Source: Escherichia coli
GTDB taxonomy: Bacteria; Pseudomonadota; Gammaproteobacteria; Enterobacterales; Enterobacteriaceae
Assembly (NCBI RefSeq): GCF_003334255.1
Contig: NZ_QOWU01000056.1
Direction: 5' to 3' (one strand)
DNA: 38,759 nt
In this document: positions 1-38,759 of the stretch, piece by piece
Layout: the number at the start of each line of letters is the position of its first letter
Position numbering within the stretch: position 1 is the stretch's first letter
Translations under genes and position numbers: made by a program
Notes under the pieces: model-generated
Databases searched by the model: none
What the model was told of the DNA's origin: nothing
The model's input: the letters and a program-made list of their open reading frames with translations, nothing else

Positions 1-72
1 CGTGTCAGTGGTGGCGCATTATAGGGAGTTATTCCGGCCTGACAAGAGGAAATTTAAAATAATTTTCTGACC
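1..72 (-). promoter_or_regulatory. rRNA operon P1 promoter with UP element, transcribing leftward out of the window (rrnC by synteny)
   Basis: Reverse complement of 1..68 reads AGAAAATTATTTTAAATTTCCTCTTGTCAGGCCGGAATAACTCCCTATAATGCGCCACCACTGACACG: A/T-rich UP element, -35 TTGTCA (40..45), 16-bp spacer, -10 TATAAT (18..23), GC-rich discriminator. Matches the rrn P1 architecture from memory. Confidence 0.8.
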
Positions 73-5271: not shown

Positions 5272-6237
5272 TTACTGCTTTTTGTTGTCTACCAGCACCG
5301 CCAGCAAAATCACCACCGCTTTGACGATCATCTGGTAATAGGAGGAAACACCTAACAAATTCAATCCATTATTAAGGAAGCCAAGAATTAATGCGCCGAT
5401 CAACGTCCCAACAATGCGACCTTTTCCGCCCGCCAGACTCGTACCGCCCAGAACCACCGCAGCAATAGCATCCAGCTCATAGCCAGTCCCCGCCGTGGGT
5501 TGTGCGGAGGAGAGACGCGCCACTTCAATGATCCCGGCCAGCGATGCCAGCAGACCACAAAGAGAATAGACGATGATTTTGATTTTATTGACGTTGATAC
5601 CAGAAAGACGCGTTGCCGCTTCGTTGCCGCCCAGCGCGTAGATGTAACGCCCCAGACGCGTGTGATGCAGCATGTACCAGGCCGCGAGGAAGACAATCCC
5701 CATGATCCAGACTGGCGTCGGTACGCCCAGCGGACGACCAATACCAAACCAGCCAAACAGATCGGCGTTCTCAGTAAAGCCGGTATTCACTGGGCTACCG
5801 TTGGTATAAACCATGGTCACGCCGCGCAGTAAAAGCATCATAACCAGCGTAGCGATAAACGCCTGGACGCGACCTTTCGCTACAATCACCCCGGTTACCG
5901 CACCAATTGCGGCACCTAACGCGAGAGCAGCAGCGACAGCCACCAGCGCATTGACTTCAATACCGACGATAGATGCAGCAACTGCGCCGGTCAGCGCCAA
6001 CAGAGAACCTACCGATAAGTCGATGCCCGACGTCAGGATCACCAGCGTCATCCCGACCGCCATAATGGCGTTCACTGAGGTTTGCTGGAGAATATTGAAT
6101 AAGTTATTGATGGTGAAAAAGTTCGGGCTTAACGTCGAGACAATCGCGATCAGCACCAGCAGAGCGATAAGCGATTTCTGCTCCATCAGCCACGCTTTCG
6201 TGAAATAACGGCGACCAGAGACAGTCTGGGTTGTCAT
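5272..6237 (-). CDS. rbsC: ribose ABC transporter permease
   Basis: 321-aa hydrophobic ORF between rbsA and rbsB. Confidence 0.95.
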   Translation of the reverse strand: MTTQTVSGRRYFTKAWLMEQKSLIALLVLIAIVSTLSPNFFTINNLFNILQQTSVNAIMAVGMTLVILTSGIDLSVGSLLALTGAVAASIVGIEVNALVAVAAALALGAAIGAVTGVIVAKGRVQAFIATLVMMLLLRGVTMVYTNGSPVNTGFTENADLFGWFGIGRPLGVPTPVWIMGIVFLAAWYMLHHTRLGRYIYALGGNEAATRLSGINVNKIKIIVYSLCGLLASLAGIIEVARLSSAQPTAGTGYELDAIAAVVLGGTSLAGGKGRIVGTLIGALILGFLNNGLNLLGVSSYYQMIVKAVVILLAVLVDNKKQ

Positions 6238-6241
6238 TTTT

Positions 6242-7747
6242 TTACTCCTGATTCACGCGATTAAGCTTGCCCACAGCGGCAGCCATTAACACTTCCTGGG
6301 TGGCCTGCTCACGAGTAAATTCCCCGCTGAGATGCCCTTCATGCATGACGATGATGCGATCGCTCATGCCTAATACTTCTGGCATCTCCGATGACACCAG
6401 AATGATGCTCAAGCCATCGGCTTTGAACTGGTTAATCAGTTGATAGATCTCTTTTTTCGCGCCGACATCTACGCCACGGGTAGGTTCATCAAGGATCAAC
6501 ACTTTGGGGCGTGTCATCAGACCGCGGGCAATCGCCACTTTTTGCTGATTGCCACCGGAAAGCAGACCAATTGCCTGTTCCATCGACGGAGTTTTCACAT
6601 TAAACAGACGAATGAAATCACTCACAGCCTGCTGTTCATCGGCATGCTTCAAACTGCCGCCAGCGCGGCTGAAGTAGCGCAGCGCTGTCAGCGACATGTT
6701 CTCTTTTACTGACATGCCCAACACTAAACCGTCACGTTTACGGTCTTCGGAGATATACACAATGCCGTTTGCCAGGCCATCCTGCGGTGAACGGGTAACG
6801 ACTTCATGCCCATCCAGGGTGACGTAACCGCTGGTGCGCGGTAGTGCGCCGTAGAGCACTTTCATCAGTTCGGTACGACCTGCGCCCATCAAACCAGAGA
6901 CGCCAAGAATTTCGCCTTTGCGTAAAGTAAAAGAGACATCGTTAACGCCAGGTCCGCAGAGATTATCGACTTTCAGGCGGATATCTCCCGGCGCTTTGTC
7001 CAGGTGCGGATATTGATCTTCCAGCTTGCGACCCACCATCATCTCAATCAGCGAATCTTCGGTCAGTGATGCCACTTCGCGCTCAGCAATAAATTGCCCA
7101 TCACGAAAAACGGTAACGTCATCGCAAATCTCGAAGATTTCTTTCATGCGGTGGGAGATATAGACAATACCGCGGCCTTGCGATTTCAGCTCGCGGATGA
7201 CGCGGAACAGGGATTCGGTTTCGGTATCGGTCAGCGCATCGGTCGGTTCATCCATAATGATGACTTTCGACTCAAAGCTCAGCACTTTGGCGATTTCAAC
7301 CATTTGCTGGTCACCGATGGAAAGATCGCCCACCAGCTTGTCGCTTTTAAAGCGCAGGTTAAGTTTAGCCAGCAATTTATCCGCTTCGGCATACATGGTT
7401 TTCCAGTCAATTTTGCCAAAGCGATTAACAAACTCACGACCGAGGAAAATGTTTTCGGCAATGGTCAACTGCGGGATCAGGTTCAGTTCCTGATGGATAA
7501 TCCCAATCCCGGCTTCCTGGGAAGATTTTGGCCCGGTAAATGTCGTTTCTTTCCCCAGCCATAAAAGCGTACCGGCATCGCGAGTATAGATGCCAGTAAG
7601 CACTTTCATCATGGTGGATTTACCCGCGCCGTTTTCGCCCACCAGCGCCATCACGCGGCCCGGATAGACATTTAACGCTGCGCCCGAGAGGGCTTTTACG
7701 CCCGGGAAGGCTTTATCGATGCCTTTAAGCTGAAGTAATGCTTCCAT
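6242..7747 (-). CDS. rbsA: ribose ABC transporter ATP-binding protein (duplicated ABC domains)
   Basis: 501-aa ORF with two Walker A motifs (GENGAGKST; GLMGAGRTE) and ABC signature LSGGNQQK. Confidence 0.95.
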
Positions 7748-7754
7748 GACGGCC

Positions 7755-8174
7755 TCAGAACGTCACGCCAGCACAGAGAATGATATTCGCATACGGAGAA
7801 CATTCTCCGCTGCGAATTACCGCCTGACTTTCTGCGGTTTGTTGTTTGAATTGTTCATGCGTGGTGTAACGAATTTCAATGGTATTTCCCTGGTGTTTTT
7901 GCAGCTGCTCAAGGTGAGTGAGCAACGTTTCGTGGAGTTGCGGATTATGGTGTTTGATCTCTTCCGCGATAATGGCCGCCTCGACCTGCATTTCATTTGT
8001 GACGACGCCCAGCACCTGCATAAAAGAAGGTACACCCTGGGTTAATGCCATATCGATACGCGTTGTACTTTTGGGGATGGGTAAACCAGCATCACACACC
8101 ACCAGCGTATCGGTATGTCCCAGACGGGAGATCACCGATGAAATATCAGAATTAAGAACGGTGCCTTTTTTCAT
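7755..8174 (-). CDS. rbsD: D-ribose pyranase
   Basis: 139 aa starting [22 protein letters not shown]; ORF track extends 12 codons upstream across the operator palindrome, which I consider non-coding. Confidence 0.9.
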
Positions 8175-8186
8175 TTTTTTCTCCAT

Positions 8187-8204
8187 CAGCGAAACGTTTC
8201 GCTG
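8187..8204. promoter_or_regulatory. Perfect 18-bp palindrome CAGCGAAACGTTTCGCTG just upstream of rbsD; probable RbsR operator
   Basis: Perfect dyad read directly from the sequence, 13 bp upstream of the rbsD start codon; LacI-family repressors bind such palindromes. A half-site-like copy (TCGAAACGTTTT) lies at ~8268..8280. Confidence 0.7.
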
Positions 8205-8340
8205 ACCCACAGTTTAATCCTGACTGAGTTGGGAAAACCATCGTGACGTTACGGAAATGTGATCAACCTCGAAACGTTTTACATGGTGATTAACCATGAA
8301 AACAAAAACGCCCCCTTATGAAGAAAGGAGGCGTCTGGCG

Positions 8341-10209
8341 TTAGATTTCGACCTGAGTACCCAGTTCGATAACCCTGTTTGGCGGGATTTCAAATTGATC
8401 TGGTGCACGCAGCGCATTACGTTGCAGCAGCAAGTACAGCTTGCCGCGCAGACGCAAATACCACGGGCGTTTGCCGAGGATCAACGACTCATGCGACATA
8501 AAGAAGGAGGTTTCCATCATCCGGCAACTTAATCCTTCCAGACCGCAGCGGTGGAAAACTTCTTCTACGTTTGGCGTTTCTCGCCAACCATAACTTGCCA
8601 CCACGCGCCAGAAAGTGGGCGACAGTTGTTCAATCTGTACCCGACGGACGTTATGGACATATGGAGCGTCTTCGGTGCGCAGAGTTAACAGAATCACCCG
8701 CTCATGCAATACCTTGTTATGTTTAAGGTTATGCATCAGCGCAAAGGGAATGACGTTGATTGCACGCGACATATACACCGCGGTCCCGGGCACGCGAACA
8801 GGCGGTGATTTCTCCAGCGAAGCAATCATCGCTTCCAGAGAGTTACCATGTTCATGCATCCGCCGCAGCAAGCGGAAACGCTCGCTCTTCCAGGTGGTCA
8901 TCACGATAAACATCACAGTACCGAGGCTCAATGGCAACCAGCCGCCGGAGAGCAGTTTATCGAGGTTAGCGGTGAACAATGGAATATCGACACAAAGGAA
9001 AGCAATCAGGATCAGCGCAACAAAATACTTATTCCAGTGCCAGTTCTGACGTGCCACGGTAGTCGAGAGAATAGACGTCAGCACCATGGTTCCGGTCACC
9101 GCAATCCCGTACGCCGCCGCCAGGTTGCTGGAGTGCTCAAAGCTGACAATCACAATCACGACCGCGACATAGAGCATCCAGTTCACAAACGGAATATAGA
9201 TTTGCCCTGACTCCATTTCGGAGGTGTGAATAATGCGCATCGGCGACAAATATCCCAGACGTACCGCCTGACGCGTCAATGAGAAGACGCCAGAGATAAC
9301 CGCCTGCGAGGCAATTACCGTCGCCAGTGCGGCGATGATCAGCAGCGGGATCAGCGCCCAGTCCGGTGCCAACAGGAAGAACGGGTTCTTAATCGCTTCC
9401 GGGTTCTTTAACAACAGCGCTCCCTGACCGAAGTAATTAAGGGTCAAGGAAGGTAATACGACGGTGAACCACGCCAGGCGAATAGGGAACTTACCAAAGT
9501 GCCCCATATCAGCATACAGCGCCTCGACCCCCGTAATCGACAACACCACTGCCCCTAATGCAATAAAAGAAACCGTTTTGTATTCAAGGAAGAAATGCAC
9601 CGCCCACATTGGATTCAGCGCATGCAGCACTTCCGGGTTAGCAATAATGCTACGTAACCCCAGTCCTGCCAGAATCAAAAACCAGGTCAGCATGATCGGC
9701 GCAAACAGCTTACCGACCATAGCCGTGCCATGTTTTTGAATCATAAATAATAAAGTGAGAACGATAATTGAGAGGGGAACTATCCAGGTATCCAGCTGCG
9801 GGGCGACGATTTCCAGACCTTCAATGGCTGACATCACCGAAATAGCGGGTGTTATGACGACTTCACCATAGAAAAAGCTGCCGCCGATTAGCCCCATAAT
9901 CACCAGCATTGATGTGGTTCGCGCCGACGTATTACGCCCGGCAAGCGACATCAACGTCAGGATCCCCCCCTCACCGGCGTTATCTGCCCGCATCACGAAG
10001 GTGAGATATTTAATGGAAACCACAAAGATTAGCAGCCAGAAGATCAGCGATAAAAAGCCAAACACGGCATCGCGTTCAACGCCAAAACCAAACTGGCCGG
10101 ACAAACATTCACGAAGTGTATATAACGGGCTGGTACCAATATCGCCGTAGACAACTCCAATCGCCGCGAGGGTAATCGCGGGCAATGATTGCTTATTATC
10201 AGTGCTCAT
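8341..10209 (-). CDS. kup: KUP-family potassium uptake transporter
   Basis: 622-aa ORF, hydrophobic N-terminal two-thirds plus hydrophilic C-terminal domain; synteny next to rbsD. Confidence 0.95.
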
Positions 10210-10431
10210 AGACTAGTCTTTCGTTGAAATATGAAATGTGTGCTTAGTCCCTTGGCCCACAAAAAAGCGCACAGTATGCACGATTAACGGCAAAATCGTA
10301 CTCCTAAATGCGGCCACATTAACCTGGCTCAAAGAAAAATACCCCCCCTTTGAGACTATTTTAGCCACCAGCAAGAAACGTCTATACTCGCAATTTACGC
10401 AGAACTTTTGACGAAAGGACGCCACTTCATT

Positions 10432-11928
10432 ATGGCTCACCCTCATTTATTAGCGGAAAGAATTTCCCGCCTGAGCAGTTCGTTGGAAAAGGGGCTTTAT
10501 GAACGTAGCCACGCCATCCGCTTGTGTTTATTAGCGGCATTAAGTGGTGAAAGTGTGTTCCTCCTTGGCCCGCCAGGTATTGCCAAAAGTTTGATCGCCC
10601 GGCGCTTAAAATTCGCCTTTCAGAATGCCCGCGCGTTTGAATATCTGATGACCCGCTTCTCCACGCCGGAAGAAGTTTTTGGTCCCCTTTCTATTCAGGC
10701 GCTAAAAGATGAAGGGCGCTATGAACGTTTAACCAGCGGTTACCTGCCGGAAGCAGAAATTGTCTTTCTGGATGAGATCTGGAAAGCGGGCCCGGCAATT
10801 CTTAATACCTTGCTCACCGCCATTAACGAGCGCCAGTTCCGCAACGGTGCACACGTAGAAAAAATCCCGATGCGTCTGCTGGTGGCGGCCTCCAACGAGC
10901 TGCCGGAAGCAGACAGCAGTCTGGAAGCGTTATATGACCGCATGCTGATTCGTCTGTGGTTAGATAAAGTGCAGGATAAAGCGAATTTCCGCTCCATGCT
11001 GACCAGTCAACAGGATGAAAACGACAATCCGGTTCCTGATGCCTTGCAGGTCACAGATGAAGAATATGAACGCTGGCAGAAAGAGATTGGTGAAATTACG
11101 CTGCCCGATCATGTATTTGAGCTGATTTTTATGCTGCGCCAGCAACTGGATAAATTACCGGATGCGCCTTATGTCTCGGATCGTCGCTGGAAAAAAGCGA
11201 TCCGATTATTGCAGGCCAGCGCCTTTTTTAGCGGTCGCAGTGCTGTTGCCCCGGTAGATCTCATTTTGCTGAAAGATTGCCTGTGGTATGACGCGCAAAG
11301 CCTGAATTTGATACAACAACAAATTGATGTATTGATGACCGGTCACGCCTGGCAACAGCAAGGGATGTTGACTCGCCTTGGCGCGATTGTGCAACGTCAC
11401 CTGCAACTCCAGCAGCAACAAAGCGATAAAACAGCCTTAACGGTAATTCGTCTGGGCGGCATTTTCAGCCGTCGTCAGCAGTATCAACTTCCTGTTAACG
11501 TTACTGCTTCCACTCTGACTCTACTGCTGCAAAAACCGTTAAAACTGCATGATATGGAAGTGGTTCATATCTCCTTTGAGCGTAGCGCGCTGGAACAGTG
11601 GCTGAGCAAAGGTGGTGAAATTCGCGGTAAACTGAACGGTATCGGCTTTGCCCAGAAACTGAATCTGGAAGTTGATAGCGCCCAACATCTTGTCGTTCGC
11701 GATGTAAGTTTACAAGGCAGTACGCTGGCACTTCCCGGTTCATCGGCTGAAGGTCTGCCTGGTGAAATAAAACAACAACTGGAAGAGCTTGAAAGCGACT
11801 GGCGCAAGCAACACGCTTTATTCAGCGAACAGCAAAAATGTCTGTTTATCCCTGGCGACTGGTTAGGTCGCATTGAAGCCAGCCTACAGGATGTCGGTGC
11901 ACAGATTCGCCAGGCACAACAATGCTAA
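10432..11928 (+). CDS. ravA: MoxR-family AAA+ ATPase RavA
   Basis: 498 aa starting [14 protein letters not shown]; Walker A GPPGIAKS; ORF track start is 8 codons upstream. Confidence 0.93.
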
Positions 11929-13373
11929 CGCTGGATACGCTTAATGTGATGCTGGCCGTCAGCGAAGAGGGATTGATCGAAGAGATGATCATCGCACTGC
12001 TGGCCTCACCGCAGCTGGCGGTCTTCTTTGAAAAATTCCCACGCCTGAAGGCGGCAATCACTGATGATGTTCCCCGCTGGCGTGAAGCGCTGCGCAGTCG
12101 GCTGAAAGATGCCCGAGTCCCGCCGGAACTCACCGAAGAGGTGATGTGCTATCAGCAAAGCCAGCTCCTCTCCACGCCACAGTTTATTGTGCAGCTACCA
12201 CAGATCCTGGACTTACTGCATCGTCTGAATTCTCCATGGGCAGAACAAGCCCGACAGTTGGTTGATGCTAACAGCACGATCACTTCAGCGTTACACACGC
12301 TTTTTCTCCAGCGTTGGCGTTTAAGTCTGATCGTGCAAGCAACGACGTTAAATCAACAGCTATTAGAAGAAGAACGCGAACAACTGTTGAGTGAAGTTCA
12401 GGAACGCATGACGCTGAGCGGACAACTTGAACCGATTCTCGCAGATAACAATACTGCAGCTGGTCGTCTGTGGGATATGAGCGCCGGTCAGCTTAAACGT
12501 GGCGACTATCAGTTGATTGTGAAATACGGTGAATTTCTTAACGAACAGCCGGAACTGAAACGCCTGGCAGAGCAGCTGGGGCGTTCTCGGGAAGCCAAAT
12601 CAATACCGCGCAACGATGCGCAGATGGAAACCTTCCGCACCATGGTGCGCGAACCGGCGACGGTTCCTGAGCAGGTTGATGGTCTGCAACAAAGCGATGA
12701 TATTTTACGTCTCCTGCCGCCAGAACTGGCGACACTAGGGATAACGGAACTGGAGTATGAGTTTTACCGTCGGCTGGTGGAAAAACAGTTGCTCACCTAT
12801 CGCCTGCACGGTGAGTCGTGGCGTGAAAAAGTGATCGAACGTCCGGTGGTACATAAAGATTACGATGAACAGCCGCGCGGGCCGTTTATTGTCTGTGTGG
12901 ATACTTCCGGCTCAATGGGCGGCTTTAATGAACAGTGTGCGAAAGCGTTCTGCCTGGCCTTGATGCGCATTGCTCTCGCAGAAAACCGGCGCTGCTATAT
13001 TATGCTATTTTCCACCGAGATCGTCCGTTATGAGCTTTCAGGCCCACAAGGCATCGAACAAGCAATCCGTTTTTTAAGCCAGCAGTTTCGTGGCGGCACC
13101 GATCTTGCCAGTTGTTTTCGCGCCATTATGGAACGCTTGCAAAGCAGGGAATGGTTTGATGCCGATGCGGTGGTGATTTCTGATTTTATCGCTCAGCGGT
13201 TGCCTGACGACGTGACGAGTAAAGTGAAAGAGCTGCAGCGGGTACATCAGCATCGCTTTCATGCCGTGGCGATGTCGGCACACGGCAAACCCGGCATCAT
13301 GCGCATTTTCGATCATATCTGGCGCTTTGATACCGGGATGCGAAGCCGCCTGCTCAGACGCTGGCGGCGATAA
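11922..13373 (+). CDS. viaA: VWA-domain protein ViaA
   Basis: 483-aa ORF overlapping the ravA stop by 7 nt; C-terminal VWA MIDAS-like motif (DTSGSM). Confidence 0.93.
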
Positions 13374-13377
13374 ATTA

Positions 13378-14370
13378 TTACAGCAGAGAAGGGACGCTCT
13401 CGCGAACAGCAGCTGGCCATACTCCACACTGAACCTGGCCGATATGCGGCAGTTGCAGCAGCAGCATAGTCAAACGAGACTGGCCGATACCGCCGCCGAT
13501 GGTCTGCGGCATTTCACCGCGCAGCAGCGCCTGATGCCACTCCAGCTCCAGGCGATCTTCGTCACCGGTCAGCGCCAGTTGATGCTTCAGCGTGTCGGCA
13601 TCTACACGGATCCCCATGGAGGAAAGCTCAAACGCATCTTCCAGTACCGGGTTCCACACCAGAATATCGCCGTTCAGACCCGCATGGCCCAGCTCTGACG
13701 GGGTGCTCCAGTCATCATAATCCGGTGCGCGCACGTCGTGGCGATGACCATCGCTCAGCTTGCCGCCAATCCCGACAAGGAATACCGCGCCAAGATCTTT
13801 CGCTATCGCCCGCTCACGCCCTTTGGCATCAAGATCCGGATAACGAGACAGTAACTCCTGGCTGTGTACGAAGTGGATCTGATCCGGCAGGAACGGTGCC
13901 AGGCCAAACTCTTCGCTAACCGCAGCTTCGGTTGCTTTAATTCCCGCCCAGATCGCCTCTACCGTGCTTTTCAGAGTCGAGAATTGACGCTCACCGTCGC
14001 CCATTACGCGTTCCCAGTCCCACTGGTCAACATAGACCGAGTGCAACGGAGAAAGACGGTCTTCATCGGGGCGAAGGGCTTTCATGTGCGTGTACAGCCC
14101 TTCGCCCGCGCTGAAGTCGTGTTGCCCTAAGGTCTGACGTTTCCACTTCGCCAGTGAATGAACCACTTCGAACTGGGCATCAGGCAGAGCTTTCACTTTT
14201 ACCTGCACCGCTTTTTCACAGCCCGACAAGTTATCCTGCGTGCCATCCCCCACACGGCTAAGAATCGGCGCCTGGACTTCGATCAGCCCCAGACGTTCTT
14301 CCAGTTGACGAGAAAAGTGAGATTTCACGAAGCTAATTTGACGTTGTTTGGCAATGTAAGCGGTTTTCAT
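13378..14370 (-). CDS. asnA: aspartate--ammonia ligase (asparagine synthetase A)
   Basis: 330-aa ORF starting [19 protein letters not shown]; divergent from asnC. Confidence 0.95.
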
Positions 14371-14390
14371 TTTTTATACTCCTGCGTCCT

Positions 14391-14410
14391 GTTGCTTATG
14401 ATTAAGCAAC
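14391..14410. promoter_or_regulatory. Inverted repeat GTTGCTTA-TGAT-TAAGCAAC in the asnA/asnC divergent promoter region (candidate AsnC site)
   Basis: Perfect 8-bp arms with a 4-bp spacer read from the sequence; assignment to AsnC is inference from position. Confidence 0.4.
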
Positions 14411-14521
14411 AAAAACCGACACACATGCAATAATCATTCAATAAAAAGCCTAACTCACTTTTGATTCATTAAAAAAGAAGGCTAAAATAGAATGAATCAT
14501 CAATCCGCATAAGAAAATCCT

Positions 14522-14980
14522 ATGGAAAATTATCTGATCGACAATCTGGACCGTGGCATCCTGGAAGCATTAATGGGCAATGCGCGCACCGCTTACGCCG
14601 AACTGGCGAAACAATTTGGCGTCAGTCCGGGGACGATTCACGTTCGAGTAGAGAAAATGAAGCAGGCGGGGATCATTACCGGGGCGCGTATTGATGTCAG
14701 CCCGAAGCAGCTCGGTTATGACGTAGGCTGCTTTATCGGCATTATATTAAAGAGCGCCAAAGACTACCCTTCCGCGCTGGCAAAGCTGGAAAGCCTTGAT
14801 GAAGTCACTGAAGCCTATTACACAACCGGCCACTACAGCATCTTTATAAAAGTGATGTGCCGTTCGATCGACGCTCTCCAGCATGTACTTATCAACAAGA
14901 TCCAAACAATTGATGAAATTCAGTCCACCGAGACATTGATCGTCCTGCAAAACCCGATCATGCGTACCATCAAGCCCTGA
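14522..14980 (+). CDS. asnC: Lrp/AsnC-family transcriptional regulator AsnC
   Basis: 152-aa ORF, Lrp/AsnC-like HTH; divergent from asnA. Confidence 0.95.
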   Translation: MENYLIDNLDRGILEALMGNARTAYAELAKQFGVSPGTIHVRVEKMKQAGIITGARIDVSPKQLGYDVGCFIGIILKSAKDYPSALAKLESLDEVTEAYYTTGHYSIFIKVMCRSIDALQHVLINKIQTIDEIQSTETLIVLQNPIMRTIKP

Positions 14981-15001
14981 TCGGCTTTTTTAATCCCATA
15001 C

Positions 15002-15041
15002 TTTTCCACAGGTAGATCCCAACGCGTTCACAGCGTACAAT
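15002..15041 (+). promoter_or_regulatory. mioC promoter with DnaA box (TTTTCCACA, 15002..15010) and -10 TACAAT (15036..15041)
   Basis: DnaA-box-like 9-mer and -10 hexamer read from the sequence upstream of mioC; DnaA-regulated mioC transcription into oriC is established knowledge. Confidence 0.6.
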
Positions 15042-15069
15042 ACGCCACTCTTAATAAAGGTGGCGGTTT

Positions 15070-15513
15070 ATGGCAGATATCACTCTTATCAGCGGCAGCA
15101 CCCTCGGCGGTGCCGAATATGTAGCAGAACACCTGGCTGAAAAGCTGGAAGAGGCGGGTTTTACCACCGAAACGCTGCACGGTCCGCTGTTAGAAGATTT
15201 ACCTGCCTCAGGGATCTGGCTGGTTATCAGCTCCACCCACGGTGCCGGAGATATTCCGGACAACCTTTCTCCTTTCTATGAAGCATTGCAGGAACAGAAG
15301 CCCGATCTTTCTGCAGTCCGCTTTGGCGCAATCGGTATTGGCAGTCGTGAATATGACACCTTTTGTGGGGCTATCGATAAACTCGAGGCAGAACTCAAAA
15401 ATTCCGGTGCAAAACAGACAGGCGAAACACTGAAGATCAACATTCTTGATCACGACATTCCGGAAGATCCGGCAGAAGAATGGCTGGGATCGTGGGTTAA
15501 TTTACTCAAATAA
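15070..15513 (+). CDS. mioC: flavodoxin-like FMN-binding protein MioC
   Basis: 147-aa ORF immediately flanking oriC, transcribed toward it. Confidence 0.95.
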   Translation: MADITLISGSTLGGAEYVAEHLAEKLEEAGFTTETLHGPLLEDLPASGIWLVISSTHGAGDIPDNLSPFYEALQEQKPDLSAVRFGAIGIGSREYDTFCGAIDKLEAELKNSGAKQTGETLKINILDHDIPEDPAEEWLGSWVNLLK

Positions 15514-15529
15514 GTATACAGATCGTGCG

Positions 15530-15805
15530 ATCTACTGTGGATAACTCTGTCAGGAAGCTTGGATCAACCGGTAGTTATCCAAAGAACAACTGTTGTTCAG
15601 TTTTTGAGTTGTGTATAACCCCTCATTCTGATCCCAGCTTATACGGTCCAGGATCACCGATCATTCACAGTTAATGATCCTTTCCAGGTTGTTGATCTTA
15701 AAAGCCGGATCCTTGTTATCCACAGGGCAGTGCGATCCTAATAAGAGATCACAATAGAACAGATCTCTAAATAAATAGATCTTCTTTTTAATACCCAGGA
15801 TCCCA
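15530..15805. other. oriC: chromosomal replication origin oriC
   Basis: DnaA boxes R4 (15536..15544, TGTGGATAA), R3 (15575..15583, TTATCCAAA), R2 (15610..15618, TGTGTATAA), R5/M (15661..15669, TCATTCACA), R1 (15716..15724, TTATCCACA); three AT-rich 13-mers at 15738..15750, 15753..15765, 15769..15781; ~14 GATC sites in ~290 bp; BamHI site 15798..15803; mioC/gidA flanks. Confidence 0.97.
15738..15795. repeat. oriC DNA-unwinding element: three tandem 13-mers (GATCTnTTnTTTT family, here on minus strand) plus AT cluster
   Basis: CTAATAAGAGATC / AATAGAACAGATC / AAATAAATAGATC read directly from the sequence. Confidence 0.9.
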
Positions 15806-15891
15806 GGTCTTTCTCAAGCCGACAAAGTTGAGTAGAATCCACGGCCCGGGCTTCAATCCATTTTCATACCGCGTTATGCGAGGCAATCACC

Positions 15892-17781
15892 ATGTTTTAT
15901 CCGGATCCTTTTGACGTCATCATCATTGGCGGGGGTCATGCAGGCACCGAGGCCGCGATGGCCGCGGCGCGTATGGGTCAACAGACTCTGCTTTTGACAC
16001 ACAATATCGACACTCTGGGGCAGATGAGCTGCAACCCGGCGATCGGCGGTATTGGGAAGGGACATCTGGTAAAAGAAGTGGATGCACTCGGCGGTCTGAT
16101 GGCGAAAGCGATCGATCAGGCGGGTATCCAGTTTAGGATACTAAACGCAAGCAAAGGACCGGCGGTTCGCGCTACCCGAGCTCAGGCGGATCGTGTGCTC
16201 TACCGTCAGGCGGTACGTACGGCGCTGGAGAACCAACCGAACCTGATGATCTTCCAGCAGGCGGTTGAAGATCTTATTGTCGAAAACGATCGCGTGGTCG
16301 GTGCTGTTACCCAAATGGGACTGAAGTTCCGTGCCAAAGCCGTCGTGCTCACCGTTGGGACGTTCCTCGACGGTAAAATTCATATCGGTCTGGATAATTA
16401 CAGCGGTGGCCGTGCTGGTGATCCGCCGTCCATTCCGCTTTCTCGCCGTTTGCGTGAACTGCCGCTGCGCGTTGGTCGTCTGAAAACCGGGACACCACCG
16501 CGTATTGATGCTCGAACCATCGACTTTAGCGTACTGGCGCAACAGCATGGCGATAACCCAATGCCGGTATTCTCGTTTATGGGCAATGCGTCCCAGCATC
16601 CCCAGCAGGTGCCGTGTTATATCACTCATACCAACGAGAAAACCCATGATGTGATCCGCAGTAACCTCGATCGTAGCCCAATGTACGCAGGGGTGATCGA
16701 AGGTGTCGGCCCACGCTACTGCCCGTCGATCGAAGACAAAGTCATGCGCTTCGCCGACAGAAATCAGCATCAGATCTTCCTTGAACCGGAAGGACTGACC
16801 TCTAATGAAATTTATCCGAACGGTATCTCCACCAGCCTGCCGTTCGATGTGCAGATGCAAATCGTCCGCTCTATGCAGGGGATGGAAAACGCGAAGATCG
16901 TGCGTCCGGGTTATGCCATTGAGTATGACTTCTTCGATCCTCGCGACCTGAAACCGACGCTGGAGAGCAAGTTTATCCAGGGGCTGTTCTTTGCTGGTCA
17001 GATTAACGGCACTACCGGTTACGAAGAAGCCGCTGCGCAAGGTTTGCTGGCCGGTCTTAACGCTGCCCGTCTGTCTGCTGACAAAGAAGGTTGGGCTCCG
17101 GCACGTTCTCAGGCGTATCTCGGCGTACTAGTTGATGACCTGTGCACTTTAGGAACCAAAGAACCGTATCGTATGTTTACTTCGCGCGCAGAATATCGTC
17201 TGATGCTACGCGAAGATAATGCGGATCTGCGTTTGACTGAAATCGGTCGTGAACTGGGCCTGGTGGATGACGAACGTTGGGCGCGCTTTAACGAGAAACT
17301 TGAGAATATCGAGCATGAGCGTCAGCGTCTGAAATCGACCTGGGTAACCCCGTCGGCGGAAGCTGCAGCCGAAGTGAATGCTCACCTGACTGCGCCGCTT
17401 TCCCGTGAAGCCAGTGGTGAAGATCTGCTGCGTCGTCCGGAAATGACTTATGAAAAATTAACCACGCTGACGCCGTTTGCCCCTGCGTTGACAGACGAAC
17501 AGGCGGCGGAACAGGTTGAGATTCAGGTTAAATACGAAGGTTATATCGCGCGCCAGCAAGATGAGATCGAAAAGCAGCTGCGTAACGAGAACACCCTGCT
17601 ACCCGCGACACTGGATTACCGCCAGGTATCCGGTCTTTCTAACGAAGTGATCGCCAAACTTAACGATCACAAACCAGCCTCTATCGGCCAAGCTTCGCGT
17701 ATTTCTGGCGTCACGCCTGCGGCCATCTCCATTCTGCTGGTGTGGCTGAAAAAACAGGGTATGCTGCGTCGTAGCGCATAA
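15892..17781 (+). CDS. mnmG: tRNA uridine 5-carboxymethylaminomethyl modification enzyme MnmG (GidA)
   Basis: 629-aa ORF starting [22 protein letters not shown] (FAD-binding GxGxxG). Confidence 0.96.
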
Positions 17782-17844: not shown

Positions 17845-18468
17845 GTGCTCAACAAACTCTCCTTACTGCTGAAAGACGCAGGTATTTCGCTTACCGATCA
17901 CCAGAAAAACCAGCTTATTGCCTACGTGAATATGCTGCATAAATGGAACAAAGCGTACAACCTGACTTCGGTCCGCGATCCTAATGAGATGCTGGTACGC
18001 CATATTCTCGATAGCATTGTGGTGGCACCGTATCTGCAAGGTGAACGGTTTATCGATGTCGGCACCGGACCAGGACTGCCAGGCATTCCACTCTCTATCG
18101 TGCGTCCTGAAGCCCATTTCACTCTGTTGGATAGCCTTGGTAAACGCGTGCGTTTCCTTCGTCAGGTGCAACATGAGCTTAAACTGGAGAATATTGAACC
18201 AGTACAGAGCAGGGTAGAAGAGTTTCCTTCAGAGCCGCCATTTGATGGCGTAATTAGCCGCGCTTTTGCCTCTCTGAACGATATGGTGAGCTGGTGCCAC
18301 CATCTTCCTGGTGAGCAAGGCCGTTTCTACGCGCTGAAAGGGCAAATGCCGGAAGATGAAATCGCTTTGTTGCCCGAAGAATATCAGGTCGAATCAGTGG
18401 TTAAACTTCAGGTTCCAGCCCTGGATGGCGAACGTCATCTGGTGGTGATTAAAGCAAATAAAATTTAA
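17845..18468 (+). CDS. rsmG: 16S rRNA m7G527 methyltransferase RsmG (GidB)
   Basis: 207-aa ORF (GTG start) with SAM-binding motif [10 protein letters not shown]; downstream of mnmG. Confidence 0.95.
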
Positions 18469-18554
18469 TTTTTATCAAAAAAATCATAAAAAATTGACCG
18501 GTTAGACTGTTAACAACAACCAGGTTTTCTACTGATATAACTGGTTACATTTAA

Positions 18555-26028: not shown

Positions 26029-26324
26029 GTGTGACCCGTCCTGAATAGCGTTCACATAGATCCTGCTGATATAAAACCCCCCTGTTTTCCTGTTTATTCA
26101 TTGATCGAAATAAGAGCAAAAACATCCACCTGACGCTTAAATTAAGGTACTGCCTTAATTTTCTGCAGACAAAAGGCGTGACGATGGTCGAAAATGGCGC
26201 TTTCGTCAGCGGGGATAATCCGTTATTGAACAATTTATCCTCTGTCCATTTCACGATGAAAAAAATGTAGTTTTTTCAAGGTGAAGCGGTTTAAATTCGT
26301 TCTCAAATTACAGTCAGGACGCGT

Positions 26325-31123: not shown

Positions 31124-32976
<1,853 letters not shown>

Positions 32977-32994
32977 TATTGCTGACACGGTTTT

Positions 32995-33032
32995 CCCCTC
33001 ACCCTAACCCTCTCCCCAGAGGGGCGAGGGGA
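32995..33032. repeat. GC-rich imperfect palindrome (CCCTCACCCTAACCCTCTCCCCAGAGGGGCGAGGGGAC), possibly a boxC-type intergenic repeat
   Basis: Read from the sequence in the pstA-pstB spacer; family assignment is tentative and from memory. Confidence 0.35.
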
Positions 33033-33074
33033 CCGACCGAGCGCCTTTTTGACTCTGTACACGGTTAACACTTT

Positions 33075-33108
33075 GCCGGATGCGGCGTGAACGCCTGATC
33101 CGGCCTAC
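33075..33108 (+). repeat. REP element between pstA and pstB
   Basis: GCCGGATGCGGCGTGAACGCCTGATCCGGCCTAC is a near-canonical REP sequence. Confidence 0.85.
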
Positions 33109-33119
33109 GGTAAGCCTGA

Positions 33120-33932
<813 letters not shown>

Positions 33933-33946
33933 TTCAGGAGTGCGTT

Positions 33947-34672
33947 ATGGACAGTCTCAATCTTAATAAACATATTTCCGGCCAGTTCAACGCCGAACTG
34001 GAAAGTATCCGCACGCAGGTGATGACCATGGGCGGCATGGTGGAGCAGCAGCTTTCTGATGCAATCACCGCGATGCATAACCAGGACAGCGATCTGGCGA
34101 AGCGCGTGATCGAAGGCGACAAGAACGTCAACATGATGGAAGTGGCGATCGATGAAGCCTGCGTGCGCATTATCGCCAAACGTCAGCCGACGGCGAGCGA
34201 CCTGCGACTGGTTATGGTGATCAGTAAAACCATTGCCGAGCTGGAGCGTATTGGCGACGTGGCGGACAAAATCTGCCGTACTGCGCTGGAGAAATTCTCC
34301 CAGCAGCATCAGCCGTTGCTGGTAAGTCTGGAGTCGCTGGGCCGTCATACCATCCAGATGCTGCACGACGTGCTGGACGCGTTCGCGCGGATGGACATTG
34401 ACGAAGCGGTACGTATTTATCGTGAAGATAAAAAAGTCGATCAGGAATACGAAGGTATTGTTCGTCAACTGATGACCTACATGATGGAAGATTCGCGCAC
34501 TATTCCGAGCGTACTTACCGCGCTGTTCTGTGCGCGTTCAATCGAACGTATCGGCGACCGCTGCCAGAATATTTGTGAGTTTATCTTCTACTACGTGAAG
34601 GGTCAGGATTTCCGTCATGTAGGCGGTGATGAGCTGGATAAACTGCTGGCGGGAAAAGATAGCGACAAATAA
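33947..34672 (+). CDS. phoU: phosphate signalling negative regulator PhoU
   Basis: 241 aa starting [20 protein letters not shown]; ORF track has a 6-codon upstream extension. Confidence 0.93.
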
Positions 34673-34681
34673 TTCACCAGA

Positions 34682-34711
34682 CAAATCCCAATAACTTAAT
34701 TATTGGGATTT
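34682..34711 (+). terminator. hairpin terminator after phoU
   Basis: CAAATCCCAATAA-CTT-AATTATTGGGATTTG: 13-bp near-perfect stem followed by an AT-rich tract. Confidence 0.7.
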
Positions 34712-34867
34712 GTTATATATAACTTTATAAATTCCTAAAATTACACAAAGTTAATAACTGCGAGCATGGTCATATTTTTATCAATAGCGCATTGCTATTT
34801 TCTCTGCACGCAATTAAATTAATTTCCGAACCTGGATGTTCGTTATAAAAACCATTAATAAATGACT

Positions 34868-38759
<3,892 letters not shown>

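Follow-up and report, generated by a model that had tools for sequence, protein, structure and literature searches.

A base-for-base K-12 oriC between mioC and mnmG in a 38,759-base stretch of Escherichia coli DNA

Does the spacer between mioC and mnmG in this E. coli DNA hold the intact and single chromosomal origin of replication of its strain, and does anything in it depart from the oriC of K-12? An earlier note on the 38,759-base stretch analysed here (the window, for short) had placed a canonical oriC at 15530-15805, with five DnaA boxes, three AT-rich 13-mers and a dense cluster of GATC sites.

Identity, boundaries and setting of the element

Alignment with the K-12 oriC, which the earlier note had proposed as a check, yielded 100% identity to E. 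coli K-12 MG1655 over a 331-base query (15500-15830), with many other strains likewise identical, and thus bears out its description of a textbook element that is not novel. From 5963 to 17314 there are zero differences from K-12 MG1655, and it is this absence of any difference that justifies the word intact, which the note had used on appearance. The two findings that it had named as speaking against an origin, a poor alignment to known oriC and DnaA boxes missing on an exact motif search, were looked for, and neither turned up. By megablast, the oriC query was matched in 5425 of 5426 complete E. coli genomes, on the chromosome in every case and on a plasmid in none; the plasmid records of the E. 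coli collection offered no place for the 331-base query. The one complete genome without a megablast match might be a mislabelled record, have a gap in its assembly or carry an engineered origin. Genomes that seemed to carry a duplicated or disrupted oriC, as judged by two matching places per genome or by matches of <80% coverage, were rejected as such, the start of the record lying inside oriC in these linearised assemblies. Judging from the sequence, we conclude that this part of the window is almost certainly the intact, single chromosomal oriC of an E. coli strain closely related to K-12. Base for base, it reads as the K-12 oriC, an origin already known and with nothing novel about it, and this identity leaves no room for a novel reading of the origin itself. 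Replication would presumably start from this copy as it does from the K-12 oriC.

With respect to boundaries, the curated origin_of_replication feature of NC_000913.3 (oriC, 3925744-3925975, 232 bp) is an exact reverse-complement string match to 15550-15781 (-) of the window. This curated 232-bp K-12 feature leaves out both DnaA box R4 (15536-15544) and the AT-cluster (15782-15793), so the boundaries drawn in the earlier note describe the functional element better than the database does; in PGAP-annotated E. coli genomes, only mioC is listed under the oriC match, with no origin feature. The minimal oriC occupies 15536..15781 (-) and is 100% identical to K-12, comprising a DnaA-oligomerisation region (15536-15737) and a duplex-unwinding element (15738-15781). 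Bounded by the L 13-mer and R4, both included, it measures 246 bp here, and the minimal oriC of E. coli has been described as 245 bp with 11 GATC sites (PMC5742627), the count of 11 being given elsewhere as well (PMC10380432). The conventional left-to-right map of oriC corresponds to the minus strand of the window, the order on the plus strand being R4-R3-R2-R5M-R1-13-mers. The claim that boxes and 13-mers stand in the expected order between the two genes therefore holds, but the plus strand runs through that order in reverse, from right to left.

The flanking genes are those of K-12. The mioC ORF (15070..15513, +) is identical to its K-12 counterpart and is transcribed towards and through oriC, and the mnmG (gidA) ORF (15892..17781, +), with one mismatch to K-12, is transcribed away from it. 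Annotation transfer from K-12 also placed asnA at 13378-14370 (-), asnC at 14522-14980 and rsmG at 17845-18468, followed by the atp operon; the native K-12 order asnA-asnC-mioC-oriC-mnmG-rsmG-atp is kept, and the location between mioC and mnmG given in the earlier note is confirmed by the same transfer. Within the 38.8 kb, the cumulative G-C curve falls from the window start, bottoms out at 15924, some 120-140 bp from the oriC element, and then climbs, the G-C skew being -0.034 on the left of this minimum and +0.046 on its right. The change of sign in GC skew that had been anticipated near this locus is thus already seen inside the window.

Beyond the origin, 69 substitutions in 35,830 comparable bases separate the window from MG1655, 4 of them in the first 31,296 bases. 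The other 65 of the 69 fall in 31297-35596, a segment covering pstC, pstA, pstB, phoU and bglG, and this cluster has the look of a patch brought in by recombination, the background being otherwise K-12-like. The window closes with 76 bases (38684-38759) of the left end of IS1 (GGTGATGCTGCCAACTTACTG...), which interrupts bglB, and NZ_CP048821.1 has the same junction, where the annotation gives a truncated bglB beside an IS1B transposase; because of this IS1 end, the tail of the window matches many places per genome, plasmids included. At the other end, positions 1-50 (-) carry TTGTCAGGCCGGAATAACTCCCTATAATGCGCCACCACTGACACG, which we take to be an rrn P1-type promoter, and the 5' end of the K-12 rrnC 16S rRNA lies 284 bp beyond the window start. 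Given an rrn promoter at one end and IS1 at the other, the window probably represents an entire contig of a short-read assembly, interrupted by a repeat at either end. Rfam gave a single match in the window, to the enterobacterial sRNA STnc410 at 26084-26241 (-), full length with 188 bits; it lies between atpC and glmU and runs antisense to the genes on both sides. In or adjoining oriC, the Rfam and tRNA scans gave nothing.

Binding sites, unwinding element and GATC clustering

The whole 38,759-base window was searched for the DnaA-box consensus TTATNCACA, exactly or with 1 mismatch, and the origin was then mapped site by site. All five DnaA 9-mers listed in the earlier note are present, but exact agreement with the consensus is limited to R1, R2 and R4, R3 and R5M having one mismatch each. 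The high-affinity box R4 (15536-15544, -, TTATCCACA) forms the right edge of the origin, R2 (15610-15618, -, TTATACACA) lies in the middle of the DnaA-oligomerisation region, and R1 (15716-15724, +, TTATCCACA), likewise of high affinity, adjoins the unwinding element, such that these three exact boxes mark the right edge, the centre and the left edge of a DnaA-binding region of ~190 bp. R3 (15575-15583, +, TTATCCAAA) overlaps the sites C2 and C3 described below, and R5M is found at 15661-15669 (+, TCATTCACA). Among the 4 exact matches to TTATNCACA in the 38.8-kb window, 3 (R4, R2 and R1) are thus confined to 189 bp. The sole exact match outside oriC (TTATTCACA, 9225-9233, -) is situated inside kup and, as a single match, is compatible with chance.

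R3 has been superseded by C2 and C3. Current models comprise 11-12 DnaA sites, including the low-affinity sites tau1/2, I1-3 and C1-3, and the Leonard/Grimwade model leaves R3 out of its 11 sites (PMC6070618, PMC5716108). What the earlier note had called a full set of DnaA boxes is therefore complete with regard to the five classical boxes, but it understates the number of sites in these models. To locate the low-affinity sites, the published rule was applied, in which four 9-mers stand 2 bp apart and the right array is oriented like R4 (PMC6070618, PMC6727663). By this 2-bp spacing, the right array would span 15548..15589 (-), with predicted sites C1 at 15548-56 (TTCCTGACA), I3 at 15559-67 (TTGATCCAA), C2 at 15570-78 (ATAACTACC) and C3 at 15581-89 (TTGTTCTTT), all on the minus strand. 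The left array, R5M included, would extend over 15628..15669 (+), with tau2 predicted at 15650-58, I1 at 15639-47 and I2 at 15628-36, all on the plus strand. These site names follow in part those reportedly used by Rozgaja et al. 2011. The right-array 9-mers agree with TTATNCACA at 4-5 of 8 positions, and the 9-mers that the spacing rule yields in both gaps (R1-R2 and R2-R4) match 3-7 of 8. Because the sequence is identical to K-12, the predicted sites are necessarily the K-12 sites, their exact frames and names being inferred.

A combined promoter and terminator scan around oriC returned no more sites than shuffled sequences did. It includes a promoter-like site at 15811..15838 (+, TTCTCA-16-TAGAAT), found by consensus and directed into mnmG/gidA, away from oriC; its position is compatible with the known gidA promoter, an assignment that is tentative in view of the shuffles. 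In the oriC motif map, the strict IHF consensus WATCAAnnnnTTR had no match. A candidate core of the primary IHF site is nevertheless present under a relaxed consensus at 15685..15696 (-, ATCAACAACCTG), between R1 and R5M, the interval in which the IHF-binding site (IBS) of the K-12 oriC has been reported (PMC5742627). A candidate Fis site is offered by a palindrome at 15584..15598 (GAACAACAGTTGTTC), located between R2 and R3, which fits the Fis consensus GnnYAnnnnnTRnnC (PMC10380432) on both strands. This 15-mer overlaps the derived C3 site by 6 bp, and a Fis site between R2 and C3 has been described (PMC6070618).

The duplex-unwinding element (15738..15781, -) holds the three tandem AT-rich 13-mers that the earlier note had reported, and they are indeed found next to R1: 13-mer R at 15738-15750 (GATCTCTTATTAG), M at 15753-15765 (GATCTGTTCTATT) and L at 15769-15781 (GATCTATTTATTT), all on the minus strand and each with 1-2 mismatches to GATCTnTTnTTTT. 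On its T-rich strand, TT[A/G]T motifs occur at 15741-44, 15751-54 and 15771-74, and its A+T content is 73% vs. 49% for the window. Flanking the L 13-mer and outside the minimal oriC is the AT-cluster (15782..15793, -, TATTAAAAAGAA), an exact match to the published element (PMC9198467). Nearest-neighbour energies rank the 13-mers together with the AT-cluster (15738-15793) second in instability among all 56-bp duplexes of the window (z = 4.1, top 0.06%), and in the mioC-mnmG spacer no 44-mer is less stable than 15751-15794. Two other segments, both with 84-91% A+T, are as unstable as the oriC unwinding element or less stable still, namely 34690-34757, the phoU-bglG spacer upstream of bglG, and 18442-18497, which runs from the 3' end of rsmG (CDS end 18468) into the rsmG-atpI spacer; owing to these two, low duplex stability alone does not single out the origin. 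Window-wide, neither 13-mer-like strings (GATCTnTTnTTTT with up to 3 mismatches, 120 vs. 104 expected) nor DnaA-box-like strings with 1 mismatch (37 vs. 30 expected) are enriched, and the evidence from motifs accordingly lies in their local clustering and arrangement.

GATC sites are densely clustered in the origin, with 12 fully inside 15530-15805, 13 if the straddler at the left edge (15529-15532) is included, and 11 in the minimal origin (15536-15781), as published. The leftmost GATC, in conventional orientation, is part of a BamHI site (GGATCC, 15798..15803) that we take to be position 1 of the classical oriC numbering. By expectation, such a stretch would have 1.0-1.6 sites (Poisson P ~1e-7), and counts per 276 bp peaked at 7 in 200 shuffles and likewise at 7 in the rest of the real window. 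The clustering that the earlier note had described as about 14 GATC in ~290 bp is real, but a count of 14 is obtained in 15521-15805 (285 bp), a span that begins ~9 bp to the left of the start it had given, with 12 inside.

GATC is also over-represented across the window as a whole (223 observed vs. 152 +/- 11 in shuffles). Without oriC, the window has 5.44 GATC per kb (observed/expected 1.39); for three 50-kb control regions far away in K-12, the figures are 3.62, 4.28 and 4.42 (observed/expected 0.93-1.14). This excess is the one feature here that textbook knowledge does not fully account for. The enrichment is strongest in mioC (6 in 444 bp) and mnmG (21 in 1890 bp), and enrichment in the two genes directly flanking oriC has already been published for Dam-positive bacteria (PMC4786541). 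That the window-wide excess might reflect a SeqA-binding or sequestration domain of tens of kb, wider than these two genes, strikes us as rather unlikely. A local group of 6 GATC in 153 bp is found at 14866-15018, where asnC ends and the mioC promoter region follows, with a terminator-like hairpin (14972-14987) near the asnC end and, at the mioC promoter, a DnaA box (15002..15010, +, TTTTCCACA) to which we would assign a role in the repression of mioC by DnaA. Collectively, the features of 14866-15018 are consistent with DnaA- and methylation-controlled transcription of mioC into oriC, and repression of mioC by DnaA is on record (PMC10380432).

Constraint on the origin, rival readings and proposed order of events

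Origins from >30 Enterobacterales genera were collected by a DNA-pattern scan of species-representative genomes, with the R5M-tau2 segment as seed, and aligned. Counting the window, the alignment comprises 113 distinct sequences, of which the remaining 112 come from genomes of other Enterobacterales. The identity of the 112 orthologous origins to the window ranges from 51 to 96%, with a median of 70%. Conservation is higher in site columns than in spacers (0.81 vs. 0.62, seed excluded; Mann-Whitney p = 3e-9), as exemplified by values of 0.98 for R1 and R4, 0.93 for R2, 0.90 for R3 and 0.94 for 13-mer R, vs. 0.61 for the spacer from 13-mer R to R1, 0.44 for that from R1 to the IHF site and 0.42 for the C1 region. 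The left array (R5M, tau2, I1 and I2) reaches 0.85-1.0, the values for R5M and tau2 being biased because these two sites seeded the scan. Of the 11 GATC sites in the minimal origin, nine persist in 83% or more of the 113 sequences; the GATCs at 15708, 15562 and 15529 vary freely and are kept in 36-42%. Across the aligned origins, the stretch delimited by the L 13-mer and R4 keeps a length of 243-248 bp. Among E. coli alleles, six of the more divergent ones, taken from a listing that spans the spread, had no change in R1, R2, R4, R5M, tau2, I1 or I2; the changes that they did have affected spacers, C1, the middle of the Fis 15-mer, the overlap of R3 with C3, the IHF core and a single 13-mer base.

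Three other explanations of this stretch have to be weighed against a single chromosomal oriC. One is that short motifs coincide by chance in AT-rich intergenic DNA, given that mismatched 9-mers and 13-mers are common, with window-wide counts near the shuffle expectation. However, 12-14 GATC sites where 200 shuffles gave at most 7, three of the window's four exact DnaA boxes within 189 bp, 100% identity to the K-12 oriC and conservation with fixed spacing across >30 genera reduce its probability to a vanishing level. Slightly less far-fetched, yet still highly improbable, is a regulatory cluster of DnaA boxes, resembling datA (DnaA-ATP hydrolysis) or DARS (DnaA reactivation), or belonging to DnaA-controlled promoters of mioC and gidA. 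Such clusters also pair DnaA boxes with IHF or Fis sites (PMC5742627), and the mioC promoter does have a DnaA box at 15002-15010; yet the three tandem 13-mers and the AT-cluster, both present here, are lacking in datA and DARS, which map elsewhere on the chromosome (datA at 94.7 min; PMC5742627) and not in the mioC-mnmG spacer. The unusually unstable duplex next to R1, the position at the skew switch and the identity to an element both annotated and experimentally defined as oriC also point away from a regulatory cluster.

An ectopic, cloned or redundant copy of oriC, whether on a minichromosome, as an engineered extra origin or through an assembly artefact, is the least improbable of the three and in our estimate still very unlikely. 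It gains some room from the shortness of the window, apparently one draft contig ending in repeats (rrn promoter at 1-50, IS1 at 38684-38759), from which copy number and genome-wide position are not visible for that reason. Against it, the native K-12 order extends for 15.5 kb on the left of the element and for 23 kb on its right, with 4 differences in the first 31 kb, and the skew minimum falls at the element; in addition, the oriC query has no place on any E. coli plasmid record, and the genomes with two matching places turned out to be assemblies linearised at oriC. A single chromosomal oriC thus remains the reading that we prefer, and its value here is that of an annotation anchor only. 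It fixes a K-12-like E. coli lineage and a chromosome position of 84.6 min, and sets the direction of replication through each gene of the window. The strain's origin carries no variant able to affect the control of initiation, and the observation opens no new testable biology.

If this oriC works as the identical K-12 sequence does, on the literature of which each protein-binding and unwinding step below is modelled, the high-affinity boxes R1, R2 and R4 would be occupied by DnaA for most of the cell cycle (PMC6070618, PMC6727663). As DnaA-ATP rises, the right array would be filled inward from R4 through C1, I3, C2 and C3, with displacement of Fis; binding of IHF between R1 and R5M would then bend the DNA, enabling the DnaA bound at R1 to load R5M and thereafter tau2, I1 and I2 (PMC6070618, PMC6727663). 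The left DnaA-ATP oligomer, together with IHF, is expected to open the 13-mers M and R, with the T-rich single strand held by the DnaA oligomer via TT[A/G]T(T) motifs, while the L 13-mer, the AT-cluster and the right DnaA subcomplex would widen the bubble, upon which two DnaB helicases would be loaded with DnaC to give bidirectional replication (PMC5742627, PMC9198467). After firing, the GATC sites, 11 in the minimal origin and others flanking it, would be hemimethylated and likely bound by SeqA; sequestered in this way, the origin would be out of reach of DnaA and Dam during part of the cycle, and re-initiation would be prevented (PMC5742627, PMC10380432). Transcription of mioC into oriC and of gidA/mnmG away from it would be expected to modulate initiation, with the passage of mioC transcription through oriC probably repressed before initiation (PMC10380432).

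Comparison with known systems

The closest known system is the oriC of E. coli K-12 MG1655, which has the same bases over 15500-15830, the same flanking genes and orientation, and the same boxes, 13-mers, AT-cluster and GATC sites. There is no difference in the element itself, the differences elsewhere amounting to the 69 substitutions in 35.8 kb and the IS1 in bglB. The origins of other Enterobacterales, among them those of Citrobacter, Enterobacter, Klebsiella/Raoultella, Serratia, Yersinia, Pantoea, Erwinia, Dickeya and Pectobacterium, share the architecture and the 243-248 bp span from the L 13-mer to R4, with R1, R2, R3 and R4 conserved at 0.90-0.98 and most GATC sites kept in 83-100% of sequences, but they differ in overall sequence (51-96% identity), with spacers that vary freely. 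Like oriC, datA and DARS1/DARS2 group 9-mer DnaA boxes together with sites for IHF and/or Fis, and DnaA oligomers form on them (PMC5742627). Unlike oriC, they have no AT-rich 13-mer unwinding element and load no helicase; situated at other map positions, they regulate the nucleotide state of DnaA and do not start replication.
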